Below are positions 58,728 to 63,950 of a DNA stretch of 64,000 nucleotides, in pieces. Position numbers and translations under genes: made by a program. The notes beneath the pieces are model-generated. The model was not told the DNA's origin, did not search any database, and saw only the letters and a list, made by a program, of their open reading frames with translations. Location: sequence record NC_048818.1. One strand, 5' to 3'. The stretch's first letter is position 1. Each line of letters opens with the position of its first letter. The DNA comes from Escherichia phage VEc33.

Positions 58728-60044
58728 TTATTTACCACGGGAAATAGAGTAAATTCCATAGCGCAGAGCATCACAGAGGTGAGAGTTAGCATCATGACGT
58801 GGTTTTTCACGCGATAATTTCTCTTCGCCTTCTTGGAAGTCCCACTTATAGTTCTGCAATGCATGAATTAAGGAGGAACATGAGGCATCTACAATAATCT
58901 TACCCTGTTGGAATAGTGCCTGCAAACATGCTAGGCCATCTAGGACAGATTTTTTAGCTGGAGCTGATGCAATTTCATGCTCGTAAGCTAAATCCTGGCG
59001 GAACTGAGCGGCGGCAGAGTCAACAAAAATACGATCAACTTTATAACGATCTATACAATGCTGAATATAAGCAGCGTGCTGGGCTGTAGTTTTTTCAGCC
59101 TGCTGGTACTCTTCTAATACATAGTAAGTATCCGTATCGTAATGATATTTAATAGTAAGAACTGCTGTAGGATCACGATAACCAACGTCAATGCCAAGCA
59201 ACGTTTCGAATGCTTCATCATCTTTAAAGAAGTGACGCATACCTTTGAGGTCTTTAACATGATCTATAGCATTGAAGGTATCAAATATCTGGCCTTCGAA
59301 TACAGAGAAGTCAGCCTCATATTCTTGGCGGAAATAGTTTTTACTAACTGTACGACGTGCTTCCTCAATATCATTCAAGTCGGCACGTGGGTTATCACGA
59401 TATGTACCATGAATAGATACCCAGTTAGGCAACGTATCATCAAATCCGTAGGCGTAAAACTCTTTAAACCAGTTACCCCCACGAGGGGTGGAAATAAATA
59501 GAGCCTTAGAATTAGGCTTATCTAGAGTAGGACGCAGCTGAACCCTGAAGGCATCACCACCCACATCGGAAATTGCCGCCTCATCAAAGATGATAAAATC
59601 ATATGAACGTCCAACTGCGGAGTCAGCCTGAGCCGCGGAAGCTAGTTTAAATAGAGAACCATTAGCTAACTCAATCTCTTTATCTTTAGCGTTTTCACGT
59701 TCGGTTTGTAGGCCATACTTCTTAATAAGACCACGAATCTGAGACCATCCAATATTAGCCAGTGAATAGTTAGGTGCAACAACAAGCACTTTTACATTGG
59801 GTTCTAGCAACTTTAGGAACCCAAGTGTATATGCTATAAAGGACTTGCCTACACGGCGTGATACACACGCCGTTACAAAACGATGTCTAGGGTCTTCTAG
59901 GGCATTGATAATTGCTATTTGAGGGCCGTTAGGTGTAATACCCTCTTGTGCTAATATTCCAGAAACAGGTAGACGGAAGAAACGTTTGTCTATTCCGAAA
60001 TCAATAACATCTACTGTGTTAACATAGGGTCTTGACACTTCCAT
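58728..60044 (-). CDS. Terminase large subunit
   Basis: 438 aa; Walker A-like RRVGKS, Walker B DFIIFDEAA, C-terminal nuclease-like acidic residues. Confidence 0.88.
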   Translation of the reverse strand: MEVSRPYVNTVDVIDFGIDKRFFRLPVSGILAQEGITPNGPQIAIINALEDPRHRFVTACVSRRVGKSFIAYTLGFLKLLEPNVKVLVVAPNYSLANIGWSQIRGLIKKYGLQTERENAKDKEIELANGSLFKLASAAQADSAVGRSYDFIIFDEAAISDVGGDAFRVQLRPTLDKPNSKALFISTPRGGNWFKEFYAYGFDDTLPNWVSIHGTYRDNPRADLNDIEEARRTVSKNYFRQEYEADFSVFEGQIFDTFNAIDHVKDLKGMRHFFKDDEAFETLLGIDVGYRDPTAVLTIKYHYDTDTYYVLEEYQQAEKTTAQHAAYIQHCIDRYKVDRIFVDSAAAQFRQDLAYEHEIASAPAKKSVLDGLACLQALFQQGKIIVDASCSSLIHALQNYKWDFQEGEEKLSREKPRHDANSHLCDALRYGIYSISRGK

Positions 60045-60526
60045 TACTTCTTACCTCCAGTAGCTAGAGAAGTAATTAAATCCATGTAGTTTTGATCCCC
60101 AGCTCCAGCAATAATGTTATTCTGGATATTAGTCTGATTAGCAGGAGCTCGAACGGCAGCTTTAGCTTTTTCTAACTCCACCATCATTTTCATCTCTTCC
60201 ATCTTCATCTTATGTGCTTTCCAGAGAATATCCATAATATCCTGGTCAGAGCCCATGCCAGTTTCTTCTAGCTCTTCTAGCTTACGTTTAATAACTTCGT
60301 CTAGAACACCAAATAAACGATCTCTATTACGGAATCCACTCTCCATAAAAATATCATTTAAGTAGTTCTTAACTTCACTACGATTCATAATATCTCGGAA
60401 AGCAATTTCAGACATTCCAAGACTACGTGCTGCGGCAGGGACATCACTACCGCATTGCAGATACGCTTCAATCACATCCATCCCTTCAGGGGACATAAGA
60501 TCTGGTACTAGTACATCATTTGCCAT
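60044..60526 (-). CDS. Putative terminase small subunit
   Basis: 160 aa, HTH-like N-terminus, directly upstream of and overlapping terL. Confidence 0.55.
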
Positions 60527-60536
60527 ATTTCCTCCT

Positions 60537-62294
60537 TTAGGTAAGGCGTTGAACTGTTACTCTTAATCTAGGTAGGAAAACTGCGCTACCCAAACTCACG
60601 TGCATAACTACTCCTAACTCTACGTTTCCGTTTCCTAGATTTTTAACAGTATATATAAAACTGTTTCTACTTAGAGCATTGTTAGGTGTATATCTAAAAG
60701 CAGATGTAGTATGAAAAGGTACTAGATAGCCCACAGGTAGCGTTAAAATCTGGTGGAATATTGCATCCCCGCCGCTATAGCTATATGCTCTTCTTCCTTG
60801 AACTTGGAACACACCATTATTCCATGTATTAGCGGGAACACCCGCACAATTAAGATTACCTGATATAACTTCAGTAGTAAGAATTACTGTAGCATTTCCG
60901 CCTGGTATACCTAGCCCAATAGTTGATAGACCAACGTATCTATCACCCGTTCCTGGGTAGCTGGGAGTAATATCATCCCCCATATAAGAACTACCTACAT
61001 TTCCACCAAAAAGTCGCAGTGGAACTGCTGATGGTCCCCAAACAACCCCATGCTCGTTACCAATAGTATTATCATTAGAGTTTACATACCACTGTTTACC
61101 TACTCCGAACCTATAAATGCTAATCTGTGATTTAGCCCCCCCATAATCTACAGGAGACCATAATCCTCCATTACTAGACCCTACAAGTTCACACCTTGCC
61201 GTGGTATCACCAAAAACTCCGGTATACGCTGCGTTATTCCCTATATACTCCATATCAGGACGGTAACCTAGGTTACCAAAAGCATTCTGATTTATAAATT
61301 TATACCCGGTATTAGGGAGACTTACCCCTTTAATTATGAAGTTAGAAGGAGATATAAGAATATCAGAACCAGTAAAGGGGTTGCCTGAAATACTCATTCC
61401 ACCATTCGAGTACCTTAAATTAAGAACATACCAAATAACCTTAGTAGGAGTTATATTATACCAGTCCTGTAGTATTGTAGAGTCACCCGACTGGTTGGCC
61501 AGATTAGTAGTAGATCCCCTACAAACAAATCTATTACCGCCGTCGTGGTACATAGTATTTACATTACCTGGGAGCCCTTGTCTAACTCCACCATATCCAC
61601 GTATATTAGAATTACAAACATAAAACCAATCATGCCCTCTATGTGCTGCTCCTAGGGGCGACATCCATCCAGGATCCCAATAGTACGGGTTATTGCCATC
61701 TACAGGTACTGTGCTACTATTAGTAGGAAAACCTAATTGTGCAAAGGCTTCTGCAACAGTAACACCTACAGGAGCTCCCGCACCGGGCCTAACTATCCCA
61801 TGATAGGTACTATGTAACGTAGTACCCCCTGTACCACTCCTAGAGATAGATTCTTCATGCCCTAGAGAGGGATTATAATTATAAGTGCCAGATGCTAGAC
61901 TATTACCAAATGCAAATCCACTGGTTTGAGAAACACTAGCAAAAGATCTAAAGGGATCAGCTTGAGTGGCAACTATAGTTTGACCAACTTGAGATTGAGT
62001 ACCATTAAGAAAAGCCCTATGAGTACCATTAATTTCAACAGCAGTTAGTATAACTCTACCGGGATCGTTAGATTTAATATTTATTATGTCAGAGGGCATC
62101 TGACATACAAAAAACCCATTTCCGGCATTACCTAACCCAGCCTCGTAAGTACCATCAACTAGGACAAATGGCATATCACTATGAAAAATACTATTATTAT
62201 TTGGACTATAGTGACGATTAATGTCACCCCCAGATTCAGTATTTAAAGATAGTACGGTCTTACCATCGCTATACTTTCCAGCGAAAAAACCCAT
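60537..62294 (-). CDS. Putative receptor-binding protein (pb5-like tail tip adhesin)
   Basis: 585 aa, Gly/Asn/Ser/Thr-rich; divergently paired with a lipoprotein gene as in the T5 oad-llp arrangement. Confidence 0.55.
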
Positions 62295-62319
62295 ATAATC
62301 TCCTATTATAAAAATGTAT

Positions 62320-62348
62320 TTGCTTTCATCCCTCTATTTTGCTATAAT
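62320..62348 (+). promoter_or_regulatory. T5-type early promoter (TTGCTT, 17 bp, TATAAT, AGATTCATAAATT) for the lipoprotein gene
   Basis: TTGCTT 62320-62325, TATAAT 62343-62348; near-identical to the promoter at 17966-17994; GGAGAG SD then ATG 62380. Confidence 0.75.
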
Positions 62349-62379
62349 AGATTCATAAATTAGAAATGGAGAGATAAAT

Positions 62380-62652
62380 ATGAAAAAGTTTGTGATTGCA
62401 CTAGTTGCCGCAGTTATGTTATCTGGTTGTGCACCTGCACCTGCTCCCAAACCATTTTGTACGGGATTTGTAAAATCTTTTGGGGGTGCGGGAGAAGAAC
62501 ATTACGGTCTCAAGGTTCAAAAAGTTCGTATTAAGGGAGATCGCTTTCCAGTAGTACAGCTCCGTACTAAGTTTGGATGGTGGGATCTCAGTCAGTTCGA
62601 TCTTAAATATGGTGATTGTAAATTTAAACTAGAGCAATCTAATTACCTGTAA
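62380..62652 (+). CDS. llp: Lipoprotein, likely Llp-type receptor-blocking protein
   Basis: Signal peptide with lipobox LSGC, Pro/Ala linker; expressed from an early promoter next to the RBP gene. Confidence 0.6.
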   Translation: MKKFVIALVAAVMLSGCAPAPAPKPFCTGFVKSFGGAGEEHYGLKVQKVRIKGDRFPVVQLRTKFGWWDLSQFDLKYGDCKFKLEQSNYL

Positions 62653-62828
62653 TTAGTATAAAGCAAAAAGACATCCAAGTAAACTAAATTTTTTATTTCT
62701 TGGATGGTGTACTGGCAGAAACCACTATATGAGAAAAGTTGAAGTCCTTCTAGGAGTTCACAGGCACGGTTGGTTGCGCACAAATTGTAGAATATTTTAA
62801 ATACCACACTTATAGGAGCATGAAAGAT

Positions 62829-62957
62829 ATGTCGAACAAAAGAAAGAGCAGACGTGGAGAAGTGTATGAGAGTTGGATAAATAGTTTTGGGTTCGGAACT
62901 ATCCTATTCTTTATTTTCGTAGGTTTTTGGTTAGCAGCTATGGCGGGGTGGATTTAA
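62829..62957 (+). CDS. Small membrane protein (42 aa), not in ORF track
   Basis: ATG 62829 with AGGAG SD at 10 nt; one hydrophobic helix GFGTILFFIFVGFWLAAMAGWI; stop overlaps next start (TAATG). Confidence 0.4.
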   Translation: MSNKRKSRRGEVYESWINSFGFGTILFFIFVGFWLAAMAGWI

Positions 62958-63064
62958 TGGGATGGATAATTATTGCGTTGCTAGGGATTGTGATTATCGG
63001 GCAATGTATTTTAGATAATCACTTAGCTAGAATTGAAACTTTACTAACGGAGAAACGTAAATGA
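62957..63064 (+). CDS. Small membrane protein (35 aa), not in ORF track
   Basis: ATG 62957; hydrophobic GWIIIALLGIVIIG; stop overlaps next start (ATGA). Confidence 0.4.
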   Translation: MGWIIIALLGIVIIGQCILDNHLARIETLLTEKRK

Positions 63065-63255
63065 TGGAAGTAGTAGCTACACTAATAGTAATACTAGTCT
63101 GGGCAACTTTCATTGTTTCTTATAACGCGTATATTCGCCTAAAAACCCTAGAGGCTCAGGTAAACCAGCAACAATTTGCCATAGAAAAATTAGTAGAGCT
63201 GCAACGTTGTGATAGCACTCGTATTCTGCAAATTGAGAGGGAATTAGATGTTTAG
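63061..63255 (+). CDS. Small membrane protein (64 aa) with N-terminal TM helix and coiled-coil tail
   Basis: ORF track; TM VVATLIVILVWATFIV then charged helix. Confidence 0.45.
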   Translation: MMEVVATLIVILVWATFIVSYNAYIRLKTLEAQVNQQQFAIEKLVELQRCDSTRILQIERELDV

Positions 63256-63466
63256 TATTATAATTACTTTTATTATCGGGATACTCGCGGGAGTTTTCGG
63301 GACGACTGCGGCAATCAATAAGCATCGTAAATATATTGCGGAAGTATCGCGGGAGATTGCGGAAAGGGAGCGGAAGTTTGACGAGAAACGTGCGGAGTTT
63401 GAGCGGGAGTGGAATGATGGTTCAAGAAGTTCTAGGAGGAGATTCAAGATAAATGGCAAGTCATAA
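63248..63466 (+). CDS. Small membrane protein (72 aa) with N-terminal TM helix and Arg/Glu-rich tail
   Basis: ORF track; TM IIITFIIGILAGVFGTTAAI. Confidence 0.45.
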   Translation: MFSIIITFIIGILAGVFGTTAAINKHRKYIAEVSREIAERERKFDEKRAEFEREWNDGSRSSRRRFKINGKS

Positions 63467-63950
63467 ACCTCTACTTCCCTTAGTCGAATACCAGAAGAAA
63501 TTTGATTATGATCCTGAAACCGGTATGTTTACCTGGAACTCAGGAAGTCGTAAAGGTAAGCCGGCAGGCGGTAGAGAGAAAGATGGTATAACTCTTTACA
63601 TGGGCAAACTCGGGAGATTTAAGGCACATCGTGTAGCATGGCTCTACATTACGGGAGAAGATCCAGGAGATTCTCTCATTGATCATAAAGACCAAGATCC
63701 CTTCAATAATAAGTGGGAGAATCTTCGTAAAGCTTCACACGCAGAGAATGGTAAAAACTCCTCGGGGTGGAAGAATGAGTCTACAGGGGTCAAGGGAATA
63801 ACTCTTACAAGCTCGGGAAAATATCGGGCAAGAATCAGAGTCGATGGCAATATGGTAAATATAGGAACTTTCGGAAGTCTTGAAGAAGCTATTTCAGAAC
63901 TCAGTGCAGCTCGTGAGATTCTCCACGGTGAGTTCGCTAATACCGTTTAA
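63453..63950 (+). CDS. HNH-family homing endonuclease-like protein with AP2-like domain
   Basis: KAHRVAWLYITGEDPGDSLIDHKDQDPFNNKWENLR (HNH-like) plus GVKGITLTSSGKYRARIRVDG...FGSLEEA (AP2-like); paralog of 24727-25260. Confidence 0.7.
   Translation: MASHKPLLPLVEYQKKFDYDPETGMFTWNSGSRKGKPAGGREKDGITLYMGKLGRFKAHRVAWLYITGEDPGDSLIDHKDQDPFNNKWENLRKASHAENGKNSSGWKNESTGVKGITLTSSGKYRARIRVDGNMVNIGTFGSLEEAISELSAAREILHGEFANTV

Follow-up and report, generated by a model that had tools for sequence, protein, structure and literature searches.

Downstream of a lipoprotein gene near one end of the genome of Escherichia phage VEc33 (NC_048818.1) lie four very small, overlapping open reading frames (ORFs), each with a hydrophobic stretch. 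Are they genuine genes? If so, why are they kept together, and what might they do at the membrane of the infected cell? To answer these questions we analysed a window of 64,000 nucleotides. It covers the right end of the T5-like genome, with the genes for the terminase, a receptor-binding protein of 585 aa and an Llp of the BF23 type. The original prediction, made from the letters of this window, had proposed four translationally coupled membrane-protein ORFs of 42, 35, 64 and 72 aa downstream of a lipoprotein gene. All four were recovered with these lengths, and the lipoprotein gene is present upstream of them. The features of the locus are as follows.

llp: 62380..62652, plus strand, receptor-blocking (lytic conversion) lipoprotein of the BF23/DT57C (BtuB) type; precursor of 90 aa with lipobox LSGC
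llp-ORF1 spacer: 62653..62828, plus strand, with a conserved -10-like box and a Shine-Dalgarno sequence
ORF1: 62829..62957, plus strand, 42 aa, orthologue of T5.159; phrog_8596, E 3.9e-32, coverage 1-42/42
ORF2: 62957..63064, plus strand, 35 aa, orthologue of T5.160; phrog_6369, E 3.6e-24, coverage 1-35/35
ORF3: 63061..63255, plus strand, 64 aa, orthologue of T5.161; phrog_5851, E 1.6e-34, coverage 1-64/64
ORF4: 63248..63466, plus strand, 72 aa, orthologue of T5.162; phrog_6447, E 3e-43, coverage 1-71/81
HNH homing endonuclease gene: 63453..63950, plus strand; Pfam HNH_3, E 7.4e-12; phrog_99, E 5.9e-55

Coding status and coupling of the four ORFs

Small ORFs may arise by chance, and conservation of the frames in relatives had been set beforehand as a test that could refute the prediction. 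Across 25 related loci the reading frames, start codons and stops are maintained. The dN/dS ratio is 0.11 for ORF1, 0.13 for ORF2, 0.29 for ORF3 and 0.19 for ORF4 in the annotated frames; when the same DNA is read in its two shifted frames, the ratio is 0.38-2.5. Judged by these substitution patterns, ORF1-4 are genuine genes under purifying selection. The start of ORF1 is the ATG at 62829; a longer version from the in-frame ATG at 62820 was rejected because relatives have ACG or ATT at this codon. Two ORFs on the minus strand were also considered. The one at 63110-63325, a candidate antisense gene, is disrupted in 14 of 16 relatives. The other, at 63244-63459, stays open, with a ratio of only 0.43 compared with 0.19 for ORF4, and we take it to be a by-product of the ER-rich coding strand.

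How are the four genes joined? TAATG or ATGA junctions had been predicted throughout. This holds for ORF1/ORF2 (TAATG) and ORF2/ORF3 (ATGA), but ORF3 and ORF4 share an 8-nt overlap, ATGTTTAG, which is neither. The junctions are kept in 24 of 26 loci for ORF1/ORF2, in 19 of 21 for ORF2/ORF3 and in 20 of 21 for ORF3/ORF4. In loci without ORF3, the overlap is re-formed as TAATG in five cases out of five, and where a paralogue of ORF2 is inserted, a TAATG junction stands on both of its flanks. Whichever of the genes are present, their stop-start overlaps are retained, which suggests that ORF1-4 are made together. Together with the hydrophobic segments described below, the best explanation at the sequence level is a translationally coupled accessory cluster of four single-pass inner-membrane proteins.

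Orthologues, neighbours and distribution among T5-like phages

By profile match and gene order, ORF1-4 are full-length orthologues of T5.159, T5.160, T5.161 and T5.162. The genes are thus already known. The T5 record NC_005859 carries them at 110826-111490, each annotated "contains single transmembrane domain", and as hypothetical proteins they have PHROG families of their own. No function is assigned to any of PHROGs 8596, 6369, 5851 and 6447, and one of the options first offered for the cluster, an uncharacterised small-protein system, was correct. Synteny was compared among T5, NBEco001, SSP1 and 22 further IMG/VR loci, and the position, order and strand of the cluster are shared with T5 and its relatives. 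In T5, too, the genes lie 3' of llp and 5' of the terminal repeat (dmp, A1), in identical order and on the same strand. The proteins are 83-95% identical to those of T5, with equal lengths for ORF1-3, equal junction overlaps and one helix each. T5.162 differs in being 81 aa long, while ORF4 has 72 aa with its last residues replaced where the HNH gene overlaps.

A second difference from T5 lies in the neighbourhood: llp and the receptor-binding protein are of the FhuA type in T5 and of the BF23/BtuB type here. Cluster DNA identity is 88-94% across T5-like loci. The cluster of T5 is 91% identical, while the T5 llp and the greater part of its spacer are unrelated to those here, and in the alignment of FhuA-type with BtuB-type phages homology restarts about 46 nt 5' of ORF1. 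In these comparisons the cluster is unchanged whichever outer-membrane receptor type the phage uses.

The lipoprotein itself was identified by a match to phrog_1119 (E 1.5e-26), with its lipobox also matched by Pfam LPAM_1. It shares 99% identity with the Llp of the BtuB-type relatives NBEco001 and phiAPCEc03, and 26% with that of T5. The start region of llp matches the primer sequences used for cloning BF23 llp (PMC4728585). In that work llp was cloned alone, with a reverse primer whose end lies in the opening codons of the ORF1 homologue, and blocked infection; Llp is described as an outer-membrane lipoprotein that is specific to one receptor and sufficient alone (PMC4728585). The gene is neighbouring context and lies outside the four-ORF module.

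Is the cluster transcribed from a start of its own? An extended -10 promoter, TGcTATAAT, is readable 5' of llp. Within the spacer, the alignment of relatives shows a conserved -10-like box, TAGAAT, at 62788-62793, and a Shine-Dalgarno sequence, AGGAG, lies at 62814-62818, 10 nt 5' of the ORF1 ATG. The T5 version of the box scores as TTTACA-17-TAGAGT with a TG upstream. This conserved box suggests a separate promoter 5' of ORF1, of unassigned class. No plus-strand terminator was detected within the window, including between llp and the cluster. An RNA element in the spacer was considered and rejected: there is no Rfam match and no tRNA, the fold is no more stable than that of shuffled sequence (z +0.75 on the plus strand, -1.16 on the minus strand), and the hairpin variants of relatives are not compensatory.

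On the other side, ORF4 shares its last 14 nt with the HNH gene, which is missing from the same site in T5 and variably present among the loci; the HNH gene is an insertion and lies outside the module. The last 6-15 residues or so of ORF4 vary, and the tail variants correlate with the downstream sequence. The adjacency of llp to the cluster may simply reflect a hot spot for accessory genes at the genome end, where HNH genes insert too.

How widely is the cluster distributed? ORF1 is found by tblastn in 446 phage records; ORF3 is found in 313, ORF4 in 442 and ORF2 in at least 186, the last count being a lower bound with a query of 35 aa. For comparison, TerL at 90% identity or more is found in 442 records. 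None of the 27 loci examined, TrudiGerster among them, lacks ORF1. ORF1 and ORF4 thus form a universal core of essentially all E. coli/Salmonella T5-like phages (about 445 records), while ORF2 and ORF3 are optional, having been gained, duplicated or lost. Some phages (L005, L020) carry an inserted 51-aa paralogue of ORF2, the sole clear paralogue within the cluster; TrudiGerster has lost ORF2. ORF3 is deleted in 5 of 25 loci and also in TrudiGerster, so that natural variants without ORF3, or without both ORF2 and ORF3, occur. Truncated natural alleles of ORF4, of 35 and 55 aa, occur as well. For ORF2 and ORF3 a common origin is not demonstrable by hhalign (2.4% probability).

As far as the searches reach, the family is restricted to the E. 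coli/Salmonella T5-like phages. An exhaustive HMM search with the ORF4 profile against 1.84 billion representatives returned five clusters, all of the same family, and when ORF4 and ORF3 were compared with 5.8 billion proteins in a word-indexed search, only close T5-like relatives came back. A profile search against the PDB gave only coiled-coil noise, and PADLOC and NCBIfam searches gave nothing relevant. The Klebsiella T5-like phage IME260 (Sugarlandvirus) has ORFs of 74 and 151 aa at the equivalent genome position and on the same strand; the gene for the receptor-binding protein lies on one side of them and the terminal repeat on the other, and an HNH gene follows. In both, a membrane helix at the N-terminus leads into a helical tail. 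However, IME260 has no ORF1-like gene and no annotated llp, and homology is not demonstrable: against ORF3, BLASTP gives an E of 0.018 for the first 30 residues, and against ORF4 the hhalign probability is 1.3%.

Predicted membrane topology and helical tails

Each of the four proteins has one stretch of 17-19 residues with a mean Kyte-Doolittle hydropathy of 2.2-2.7, and none has a lipobox. A leading helix had been claimed for every ORF. One helix each is indeed found, and it is N-terminal in ORF2-4, but in ORF1 it occupies the C-terminal half (about residues 20-41), where small-residue motifs are seen, after a basic N-terminus, MSNKRKSRRGEVYESW, that contains KRKSRR. ORF2 begins with its membrane helix and ends in a short tail, DNHLARIETLL..KRK. 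In ORF3 the N-terminal helix is of variable sequence while the heptad-patterned tail, RLKTLEAQVKQQQ...QRCDSTRILQIERELDV, is strongly conserved. In the N-terminal helix of ORF4, G11, G15 and G18 are invariant; a basic cluster, NKHRK, and then a charged ER/K-type helix, REIAERERKFDEKRAEFEREW, follow it. For both ORF3 and ORF4 the alignments show tails far better conserved than the membrane helices. AF2 monomer models give one continuous helix for each, residues 2-63 in ORF3 (pLDDT 86.6) and residues 2-69 in ORF4 (pLDDT 72). The coiled-coil tails of the original prediction are borne out to the extent of the heptad pattern, the ER/K-type helix and these single-helix models, but not beyond.

On which side of the membrane would the tails lie? 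ORF1 has six K/R residues ahead of its helix and none behind, and it is predicted to be N-in and tail-anchored-like. In ORF2-4 the N-flank has no K/R, and the first 15 residues past the helix have 2.5-3.4. The ORF3 and ORF4 tails (42-50 aa) are predicted to be cytoplasmic by the positive-inside rule, which is a rule of thumb and can mislead for short signal-anchor proteins. The sequence of lambda Rz would likewise give an ambiguous positive-inside score.

Possible roles at the inner membrane

What could such a cluster do? The best explanation as a whole, to which we give a probability of roughly 0.5, is that the orthologues of T5.159-T5.162 form a coupled inner-membrane accessory cluster. From its strand and position, the cluster would be expressed early, with llp or just after it. 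From the K/R distribution, ORF1 would insert N-in and ORF2-4 N-out/C-in, which would place all soluble parts on the cytoplasmic face: the basic head of ORF1, the zipper-like helix of ORF3 and the ER/K helix of ORF4. The membrane helices, with their small-residue motifs, may pack into a small hetero-oligomer, and the conserved helices on the cytoplasmic side would serve to bind a partner from host or phage. The complex would then act at the infected cell's inner membrane as a non-essential accessory of "lytic conversion". As a second layer, independent of the receptor, it would condition this membrane or close it, for instance to keep out the DNA of secondary phages or to prevent leakage. This conditioning or closing mechanism is speculative, and we regard it as possible rather than probable. 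In an unlikely but more specific form, ORF1 and ORF4 would be the core and ORF2 and ORF3 optional subunits of a complex of the T5 clade, which would act beside Llp as the receptor-independent arm of lytic conversion, for example by blocking the DNA of any superinfecting phage at the inner membrane or by re-sealing that membrane after the two-step DNA transfer of T5 itself.

Known systems offer partial parallels. Like the receptor-blocking lipoproteins of the Llp/Cor type (T5, BF23), ORF1-4 are proposed to have an accessory function at the infected-cell envelope, and llp adjoins the cluster on the same strand and is probably of the same temporal class. However, Llp is a receptor-specific lipoprotein of the outer membrane, while ORF1-4 are predicted to lie in the inner membrane and are common to phages with different receptors. 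The exclusion proteins Imm and Sp of T4, SieA of P22 and gp15 of HK97 are also small membrane proteins, non-essential and made by the infecting or resident phage, and ORF1-4 adjoin an exclusion gene. These examples are single genes, whereas here there is a coupled set of two to five, and they have no detected sequence similarity to ORF1-4. More generally, no homologues of ORF1-4 among known exclusion, defence or anti-defence proteins were found in Pfam, PHROGs, NCBIfam, PADLOC or PDB profiles. Superinfection exclusion or membrane remodelling, both named in the original prediction, is a possible role. All four genes were scored "Not Fit" in a CRISPRi-ART screen of T5 (PMC11879866, supplementary file 16), which is weak evidence, the portal gene T5.152 having been scored Not Fit too (PMC11879866). 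On that weak evidence, T5.159-T5.162 appear dispensable in the laboratory.

Could the target be the host rather than a second phage? In a host-takeover role, the anchored cytoplasmic helices might attach to a machine of the host envelope or of cell division and inhibit it; SPO1 gp56, lambda Kil and lambda cIII would be comparable small phage proteins. Candidate targets are the divisome, FtsH/HflKC and the partners of YhcB (ZapG) or LapA. ZapG/YhcB, LapA and FtsL are likewise built of an N-terminal anchor and a cytoplasmic helix. ORF4, predicted to share this layout, gives sub-threshold matches to all three families: LapA_dom (22.3 bits, curated cut-off 28), ZapG-like (15.0, cut-off 33.5) and FtsL (14.5, cut-off 50). 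The better conservation of tails than of helices is what binding surfaces would show, and dispensability in the CRISPRi-ART screen also agrees with such a role. However, every one of these matches is below threshold and is driven by the composition of a hydrophobic helix and a charged helix; ORF4 scores far under the cut-offs and is not a member of these families. We give host takeover a real but minor chance.

An anti-defence function is improbable. Here the cluster would neutralise a membrane-bound effector of abortive infection or defence and would matter only in hosts carrying that system, which would agree with dispensability in E. coli K-12-type laboratory hosts. Rapid gain and loss of genes in the cluster and a clade-restricted orphan family are typical of arms-race genes, but ORF1 and ORF4 are near-universal and 70-95% conserved across two genera, which better fits a housekeeping-like accessory role. 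Nor is there similarity to known systems, in a search that covered defence proteins only.

Another reading with little chance of being right, which leans on analogy with T4 RI and RIII, makes the proteins antiholin-like regulators of lysis timing that would bind the T4-T-like holin T5.041 and put off or adjust its hole formation. T4 controls its class III holin through small partners. A class III holin is reported for Sepoy, a T5-like phage, the annotation of the T5 spanins notes similarity to T4 PseT.2, and ORF2-4 consist of an N-terminal hydrophobic helix and a helical tail. Against this, about 90 kb separate the genes from the lysis cassette, they have no RI or RIII family similarity in Pfam or PHROGs, and the tails are predicted to be cytoplasmic whereas RI works in the periplasm. 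Lysis inhibition is not known for T5, which also counts against it.

The weakest reading, hardly credible, takes up the analogy of the original prediction and makes ORF3, ORF4 or both i-spanins or holin components, with the upstream lipoprotein as an o-spanin-like partner. Like lambda Rz/Rz1, T4 PseT.3/PseT.2 and T5.044/T5.045, ORF3 and ORF4 have an N-terminal helix and then a charged helical segment, and a lipoprotein gene is close by, but the likeness is superficial. The periplasmic part of i-spanins is roughly 100 aa or more, whereas these tails have just 42-50 aa; i-spanins have type II topology (N-in, C-out) with a long periplasmic coiled coil, whereas the K/R distribution, with none in the N-flank and 2.5-2.8 in the C-flank, favours cytoplasmic tails, the opposite orientation. 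The only lipoprotein is the upstream Llp, which blocks the receptor by itself, and the ORF list has no lipobox ORF within or after ORF3/ORF4 that could be an o-spanin gene. Neither a spanin nor a holin family match was found for ORF1-4 in Pfam or PHROGs, and no endolysin gene is adjacent. Viable phages naturally lack ORF3, and all four genes were dispensable in the CRISPRi-ART screen. The T5 endolysin T5.040, holin T5.041 and Rz-like spanins T5.044/T5.045 are annotated about 90 kb away, the holin and endolysin mapping at 20-21 kb of T5, and a T5-like lysis cassette is likewise described in CPT announcements (PMC4342426, PMC6658699). ORF1-4 are thus very unlikely to be the lysis genes of T5-like phages.

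We return to the coupled inner-membrane accessory cluster. A literature search found no paper that names T5.159-T5.162 in its main text or gives them a role, and the downstream genes are unmentioned in the reviews and Llp structure papers checked. The cluster neighbours the one exclusion gene that has been characterised in this classic model phage. If it serves inner-membrane exclusion, re-sealing or host takeover, a small-protein mechanism would be added to T5 biology. If the receptor-independent arm is real, genes would be assigned to membrane phenomena of T5 infection that have long been described and have had no genes. For therapeutic T5-like phages, mislabelled or unannotated genes of the cluster are a practical point. 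Many of their records label these genes "tail assembly" or "tail fiber", or leave ORF1 unannotated.

Gene setting and coding evidence

The window comes from a T5-like phage (Markadamsvirinae), and its final 5 kb, where the unique region ends on the right, carry the following features.

58728-60044, minus strand: large terminase (TerL)
60044-60526, minus strand: small terminase
60537-62294, minus strand: receptor-binding tail protein, 585 aa
62380-62652, plus strand: lipoprotein gene (llp)
62829-63466, plus strand: ORF1-4, small ORFs
63453-63950, plus strand: HNH endonuclease gene

We are highly confident that ORF1-4 are the orthologues of phage T5 genes T5.159-T5.162 and form an accessory, co-translated set with two core genes, each member encoding an inner-membrane protein that crosses the membrane once. 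The T5 annotation places these genes at 110826-111490, with 42 nt between their end and the right terminal repeat, and notes 'contains single transmembrane domain' for each. The next genes rightward, seen in relatives with permuted or complete sequences, are dmp and A1, pre-early genes of the terminal repeat. The HNH homing endonuclease gene overlaps the 3' end of ORF4 by 14 nt; the corresponding site in T5 holds no gene. The 1.7 kb around ORF1-4 match 246 phage records, and the best of these, Salmonella phages Stp1 and PH204 and Escherichia phage VAH1, are 88-89% identical over the whole 1.7 kb.

Are such small ORFs genes at all? ORF1-4 are real genes, not chance ORFs. Homologous ORFs were taken from 25 related loci, across which the frames are kept, lengths are almost unchanged and selection is purifying, with pooled pairwise dN/dS of 0.11, 0.13, 0.29 and 0.19 for ORF1 to ORF4; the shifted-frame control, using both frames of the same DNA, gave 0.38-2.5, and the positive control Llp 0.04. 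Variable sites are enriched at third codon positions. The start codon is ATG in all loci for ORF1, ORF2 and ORF4 and in 19 of 21 for ORF3, the other two having ATG one codon downstream. Full-length matches were found to PHROG families 8596, 6369, 5851 and 6447 respectively, which have no known function, while searches of Pfam, NCBIfam and PADLOC gave no match above threshold. There are also two long antisense ORFs, one of them broken in 14 of 16 relatives. The other, a minus-strand ORF of 71 aa opposite ORF4 (63244-63459), is uninterrupted in 15 of 16 relatives. Its dN/dS-like ratio of 0.43 is a weaker signal than that of ORF4, and the ORF probably arises from the Glu/Arg-rich composition of the coding strand.

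The coordinates and lengths in the original prediction, 62829-62957 (42 aa), 62957-63064 (35 aa), 63061-63255 (64 aa) and 63248-63466 (72 aa), are correct. ATG 62829 stands as the start of ORF1; the in-frame ATG at 62820 is ruled out because it reads ACG or ATT in relatives. The proposed TAATG and ATGA junctions are present at ORF1/ORF2 and ORF2/ORF3, while ORF3 and ORF4 are joined by an 8-nt overlap, ATGTTTAG. A purine-rich Shine-Dalgarno-like motif lies 7-10 nt 5' of every start.

Topology and distribution

Each ORF has one strongly hydrophobic membrane stretch, as predicted (mean hydropathy 2.2-2.7 over 17-19 residues). The helix is N-terminal, as had been described for all four, in ORF2-4; in ORF1 a basic segment (MSNKRKSRRGEVY...) comes first and the helix makes up the C-terminal half. 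ORF2-4 have no Lys/Arg ahead of the helix and 2.5-3.4 within 15 residues past it, and ORF1 has six basic residues ahead and nothing past. By the positive-inside rule, a rule of thumb, this distribution would place every soluble segment in the cytoplasm. AlphaFold2 gave a single continuous helix for ORF3 (residues 2-63, pLDDT 87) and for ORF4 (residues 2-69, pLDDT 72). The tail of ORF3 (RLKTLEAQVKQQQ...QRCDSTRILQIERELDV) is almost invariant and its membrane helix variable. ORF4 is conserved in the glycines of its helix (G18 is invariant, and at least 90% of sequences have G11 and G15), in the basic cluster NKHRK and in an ER/K-rich helix. With moderate confidence we predict that the conserved helices face the cytoplasm and that the membrane helices pack in a small hetero-oligomer. 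Past position 66, ORF4 residues vary with the downstream sequence, which is the HNH gene in the window and others in T5 and Epseptimavirus: the end (63445-63466) is KINGKS here, EFRPEHRFDDPSMR in T5 and MSESGDKPVDRRSS or AKVSDEE elsewhere. Thus the HNH insertion apparently replaced the old ORF4 C-terminus, a dispensable one.

By tblastn against 50,697 phage records, ORF1 was found in 446, ORF4 in 442, ORF3 in 313 and ORF2 in at least 186. TerL is at least 90% identical in 442 records, so the ORF1 and ORF4 pair is present in essentially every T5-like phage of E. coli and Salmonella (Tequintavirus, Epseptimavirus). The pair was undetectable by tblastn in Proteus and Vibrio relatives and in most Klebsiella T5-like phages (81 records with TerL at 80-90% identity); three Klebsiella-named records match both. 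An exhaustive profile search with the ORF4 alignment against 1.84 billion representative proteins returned five clusters only, all of the ORF4 family, which by this search is a clade-restricted orphan.

Gene content varies within this range. ORF3 is absent from five loci, and TrudiGerster retains ORF1 and ORF4 alone. In two related loci (L005 and L020, 2555-2707) ORF2 is preceded by a tandem paralogue of 51 aa, inserted after ORF1, with TAATG at both junctions. Stop-to-start overlap between neighbours is preserved in every arrangement seen, a pattern that points to selection for coupled translation. Epseptimavirus atrejo carries the complete set (ORF1 unannotated) and an acidic 88-aa gene after llp. 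In Epseptimavirus phages (L026, 2323-2589; L027, 2209-2487) an extra acidic ORF of 88-92 aa lies between llp and the ORF1 homologue and overlaps the upstream extension of ORF1. The ORF1 homologue is unannotated in a number of relatives' records, and ORF2 and ORF3 homologues are widely called 'tail assembly protein' or 'tail fiber protein' in GenBank and UniRef, apparently a propagated annotation with no visible basis.

In the T5-like Klebsiella phage vB_Kpn_IME260 (L029, 3991-4674), the place of the cluster is taken, on the same strand, by two ORFs of 74 and 151 aa. Like ORF2-4, each has a membrane helix at its N-terminus and a helical tail after it, and as in the window an HNH gene comes next. 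Homology to ORF3 and ORF4 was not demonstrable, and the pair gives a hint of positional conservation. The 151-aa ORF is unannotated, and the record has no annotated llp. Vibrio phage Cody yielded no counterpart of the cluster.

Llp and the upstream region

The upstream lipoprotein is Llp (phrog_1119 match), which blocks the receptor in lytic conversion; it is 99% identical to that of BtuB-type relatives and 26% to the FhuA-specific Llp of T5. Both Llp and the 585-aa receptor-binding protein (together 60537-62652) belong to the BF23/DT57C type, so BtuB is the implied receptor. A 6-nt repeat expansion gives the window Llp an extra Ala-Pro past the lipobox cysteine (CAPAPAPKP, against CAPAPKP in relatives). 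The primers published for DT57C to clone BF23 llp (PMC4728585) match the window llp start and the first ORF1 codons. That clone, lacking ORF1-4, was enough to block infection (PMC4728585); therefore Llp is independent of all four ORFs and is not an o-spanin.

Between T5 (FhuA type) and the window phage (BtuB type) the llp genes are unrelated and the spacers mostly so. Homology restarts about 46 nt 5' of ORF1 and runs at about 91% identity through ORF4, so the cluster is a module of its own, whose variation does not follow receptor specificity. The shared upstream segment holds a -10-like box, TAGAAT (62788-62793), whose T5 counterpart scores as TTTACA-17-TAGAGT with TG upstream. The window has no good -35 with this box and no plus-strand terminator between llp and ORF1, so transcription of ORF1-4 may start at the strong llp promoter, at the box, or at both. 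Spacer hairpins at 62672-62706 and 62741-62759 are followed by T-rich runs on the minus strand only and would look like terminators for transcripts that leave the terminal repeat leftward and run antisense to ORF4-ORF1; overall, the region folds no better than shuffled sequence.

Possible roles

Which role might ORF1 and ORF4 play, two tiny membrane proteins that are near-universal among T5-like phages? This is the point of interest, as the genes themselves are already known, annotated in the model phage T5 and catalogued as families of unknown function. Our favoured function is a guess, with a probability of roughly 0.3: ORF1-4 would be non-essential and act at the infected cell's inner membrane as a receptor-independent companion to Llp. 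Their action could be secondary DNA entry exclusion or membrane conditioning. Host takeover, with the envelope or division machine as target, is possible but doubtful; an anti-defence role is unlikely, and so, to the same degree, is one in lysis timing. The originally suggested spanin or holin role is not supported and highly improbable: the upstream lipoprotein is Llp, the tails are short and probably cytoplasmic, ORF3 is naturally lost, and T5 has its endolysin (T5.040), holin (T5.041) and two Rz-like spanins (T5.044/045) about 90 kb from T5.159-162, the same lysis cassette being reported in genome announcements of T5-like phages.

A literature search found no paper naming T5.159-162 in its text. 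In a transcriptome-wide CRISPRi-ART knock-down of T5 (PMC11879866, supplementary file 16) they are listed as 'unknown' and all four as 'Not Fit', meaning that their knock-down did not detectably lower fitness in the laboratory host. The portal gene T5.152 is also 'Not Fit' in that table, which makes these calls weak evidence. They do fit the deletions and truncations that occur naturally.
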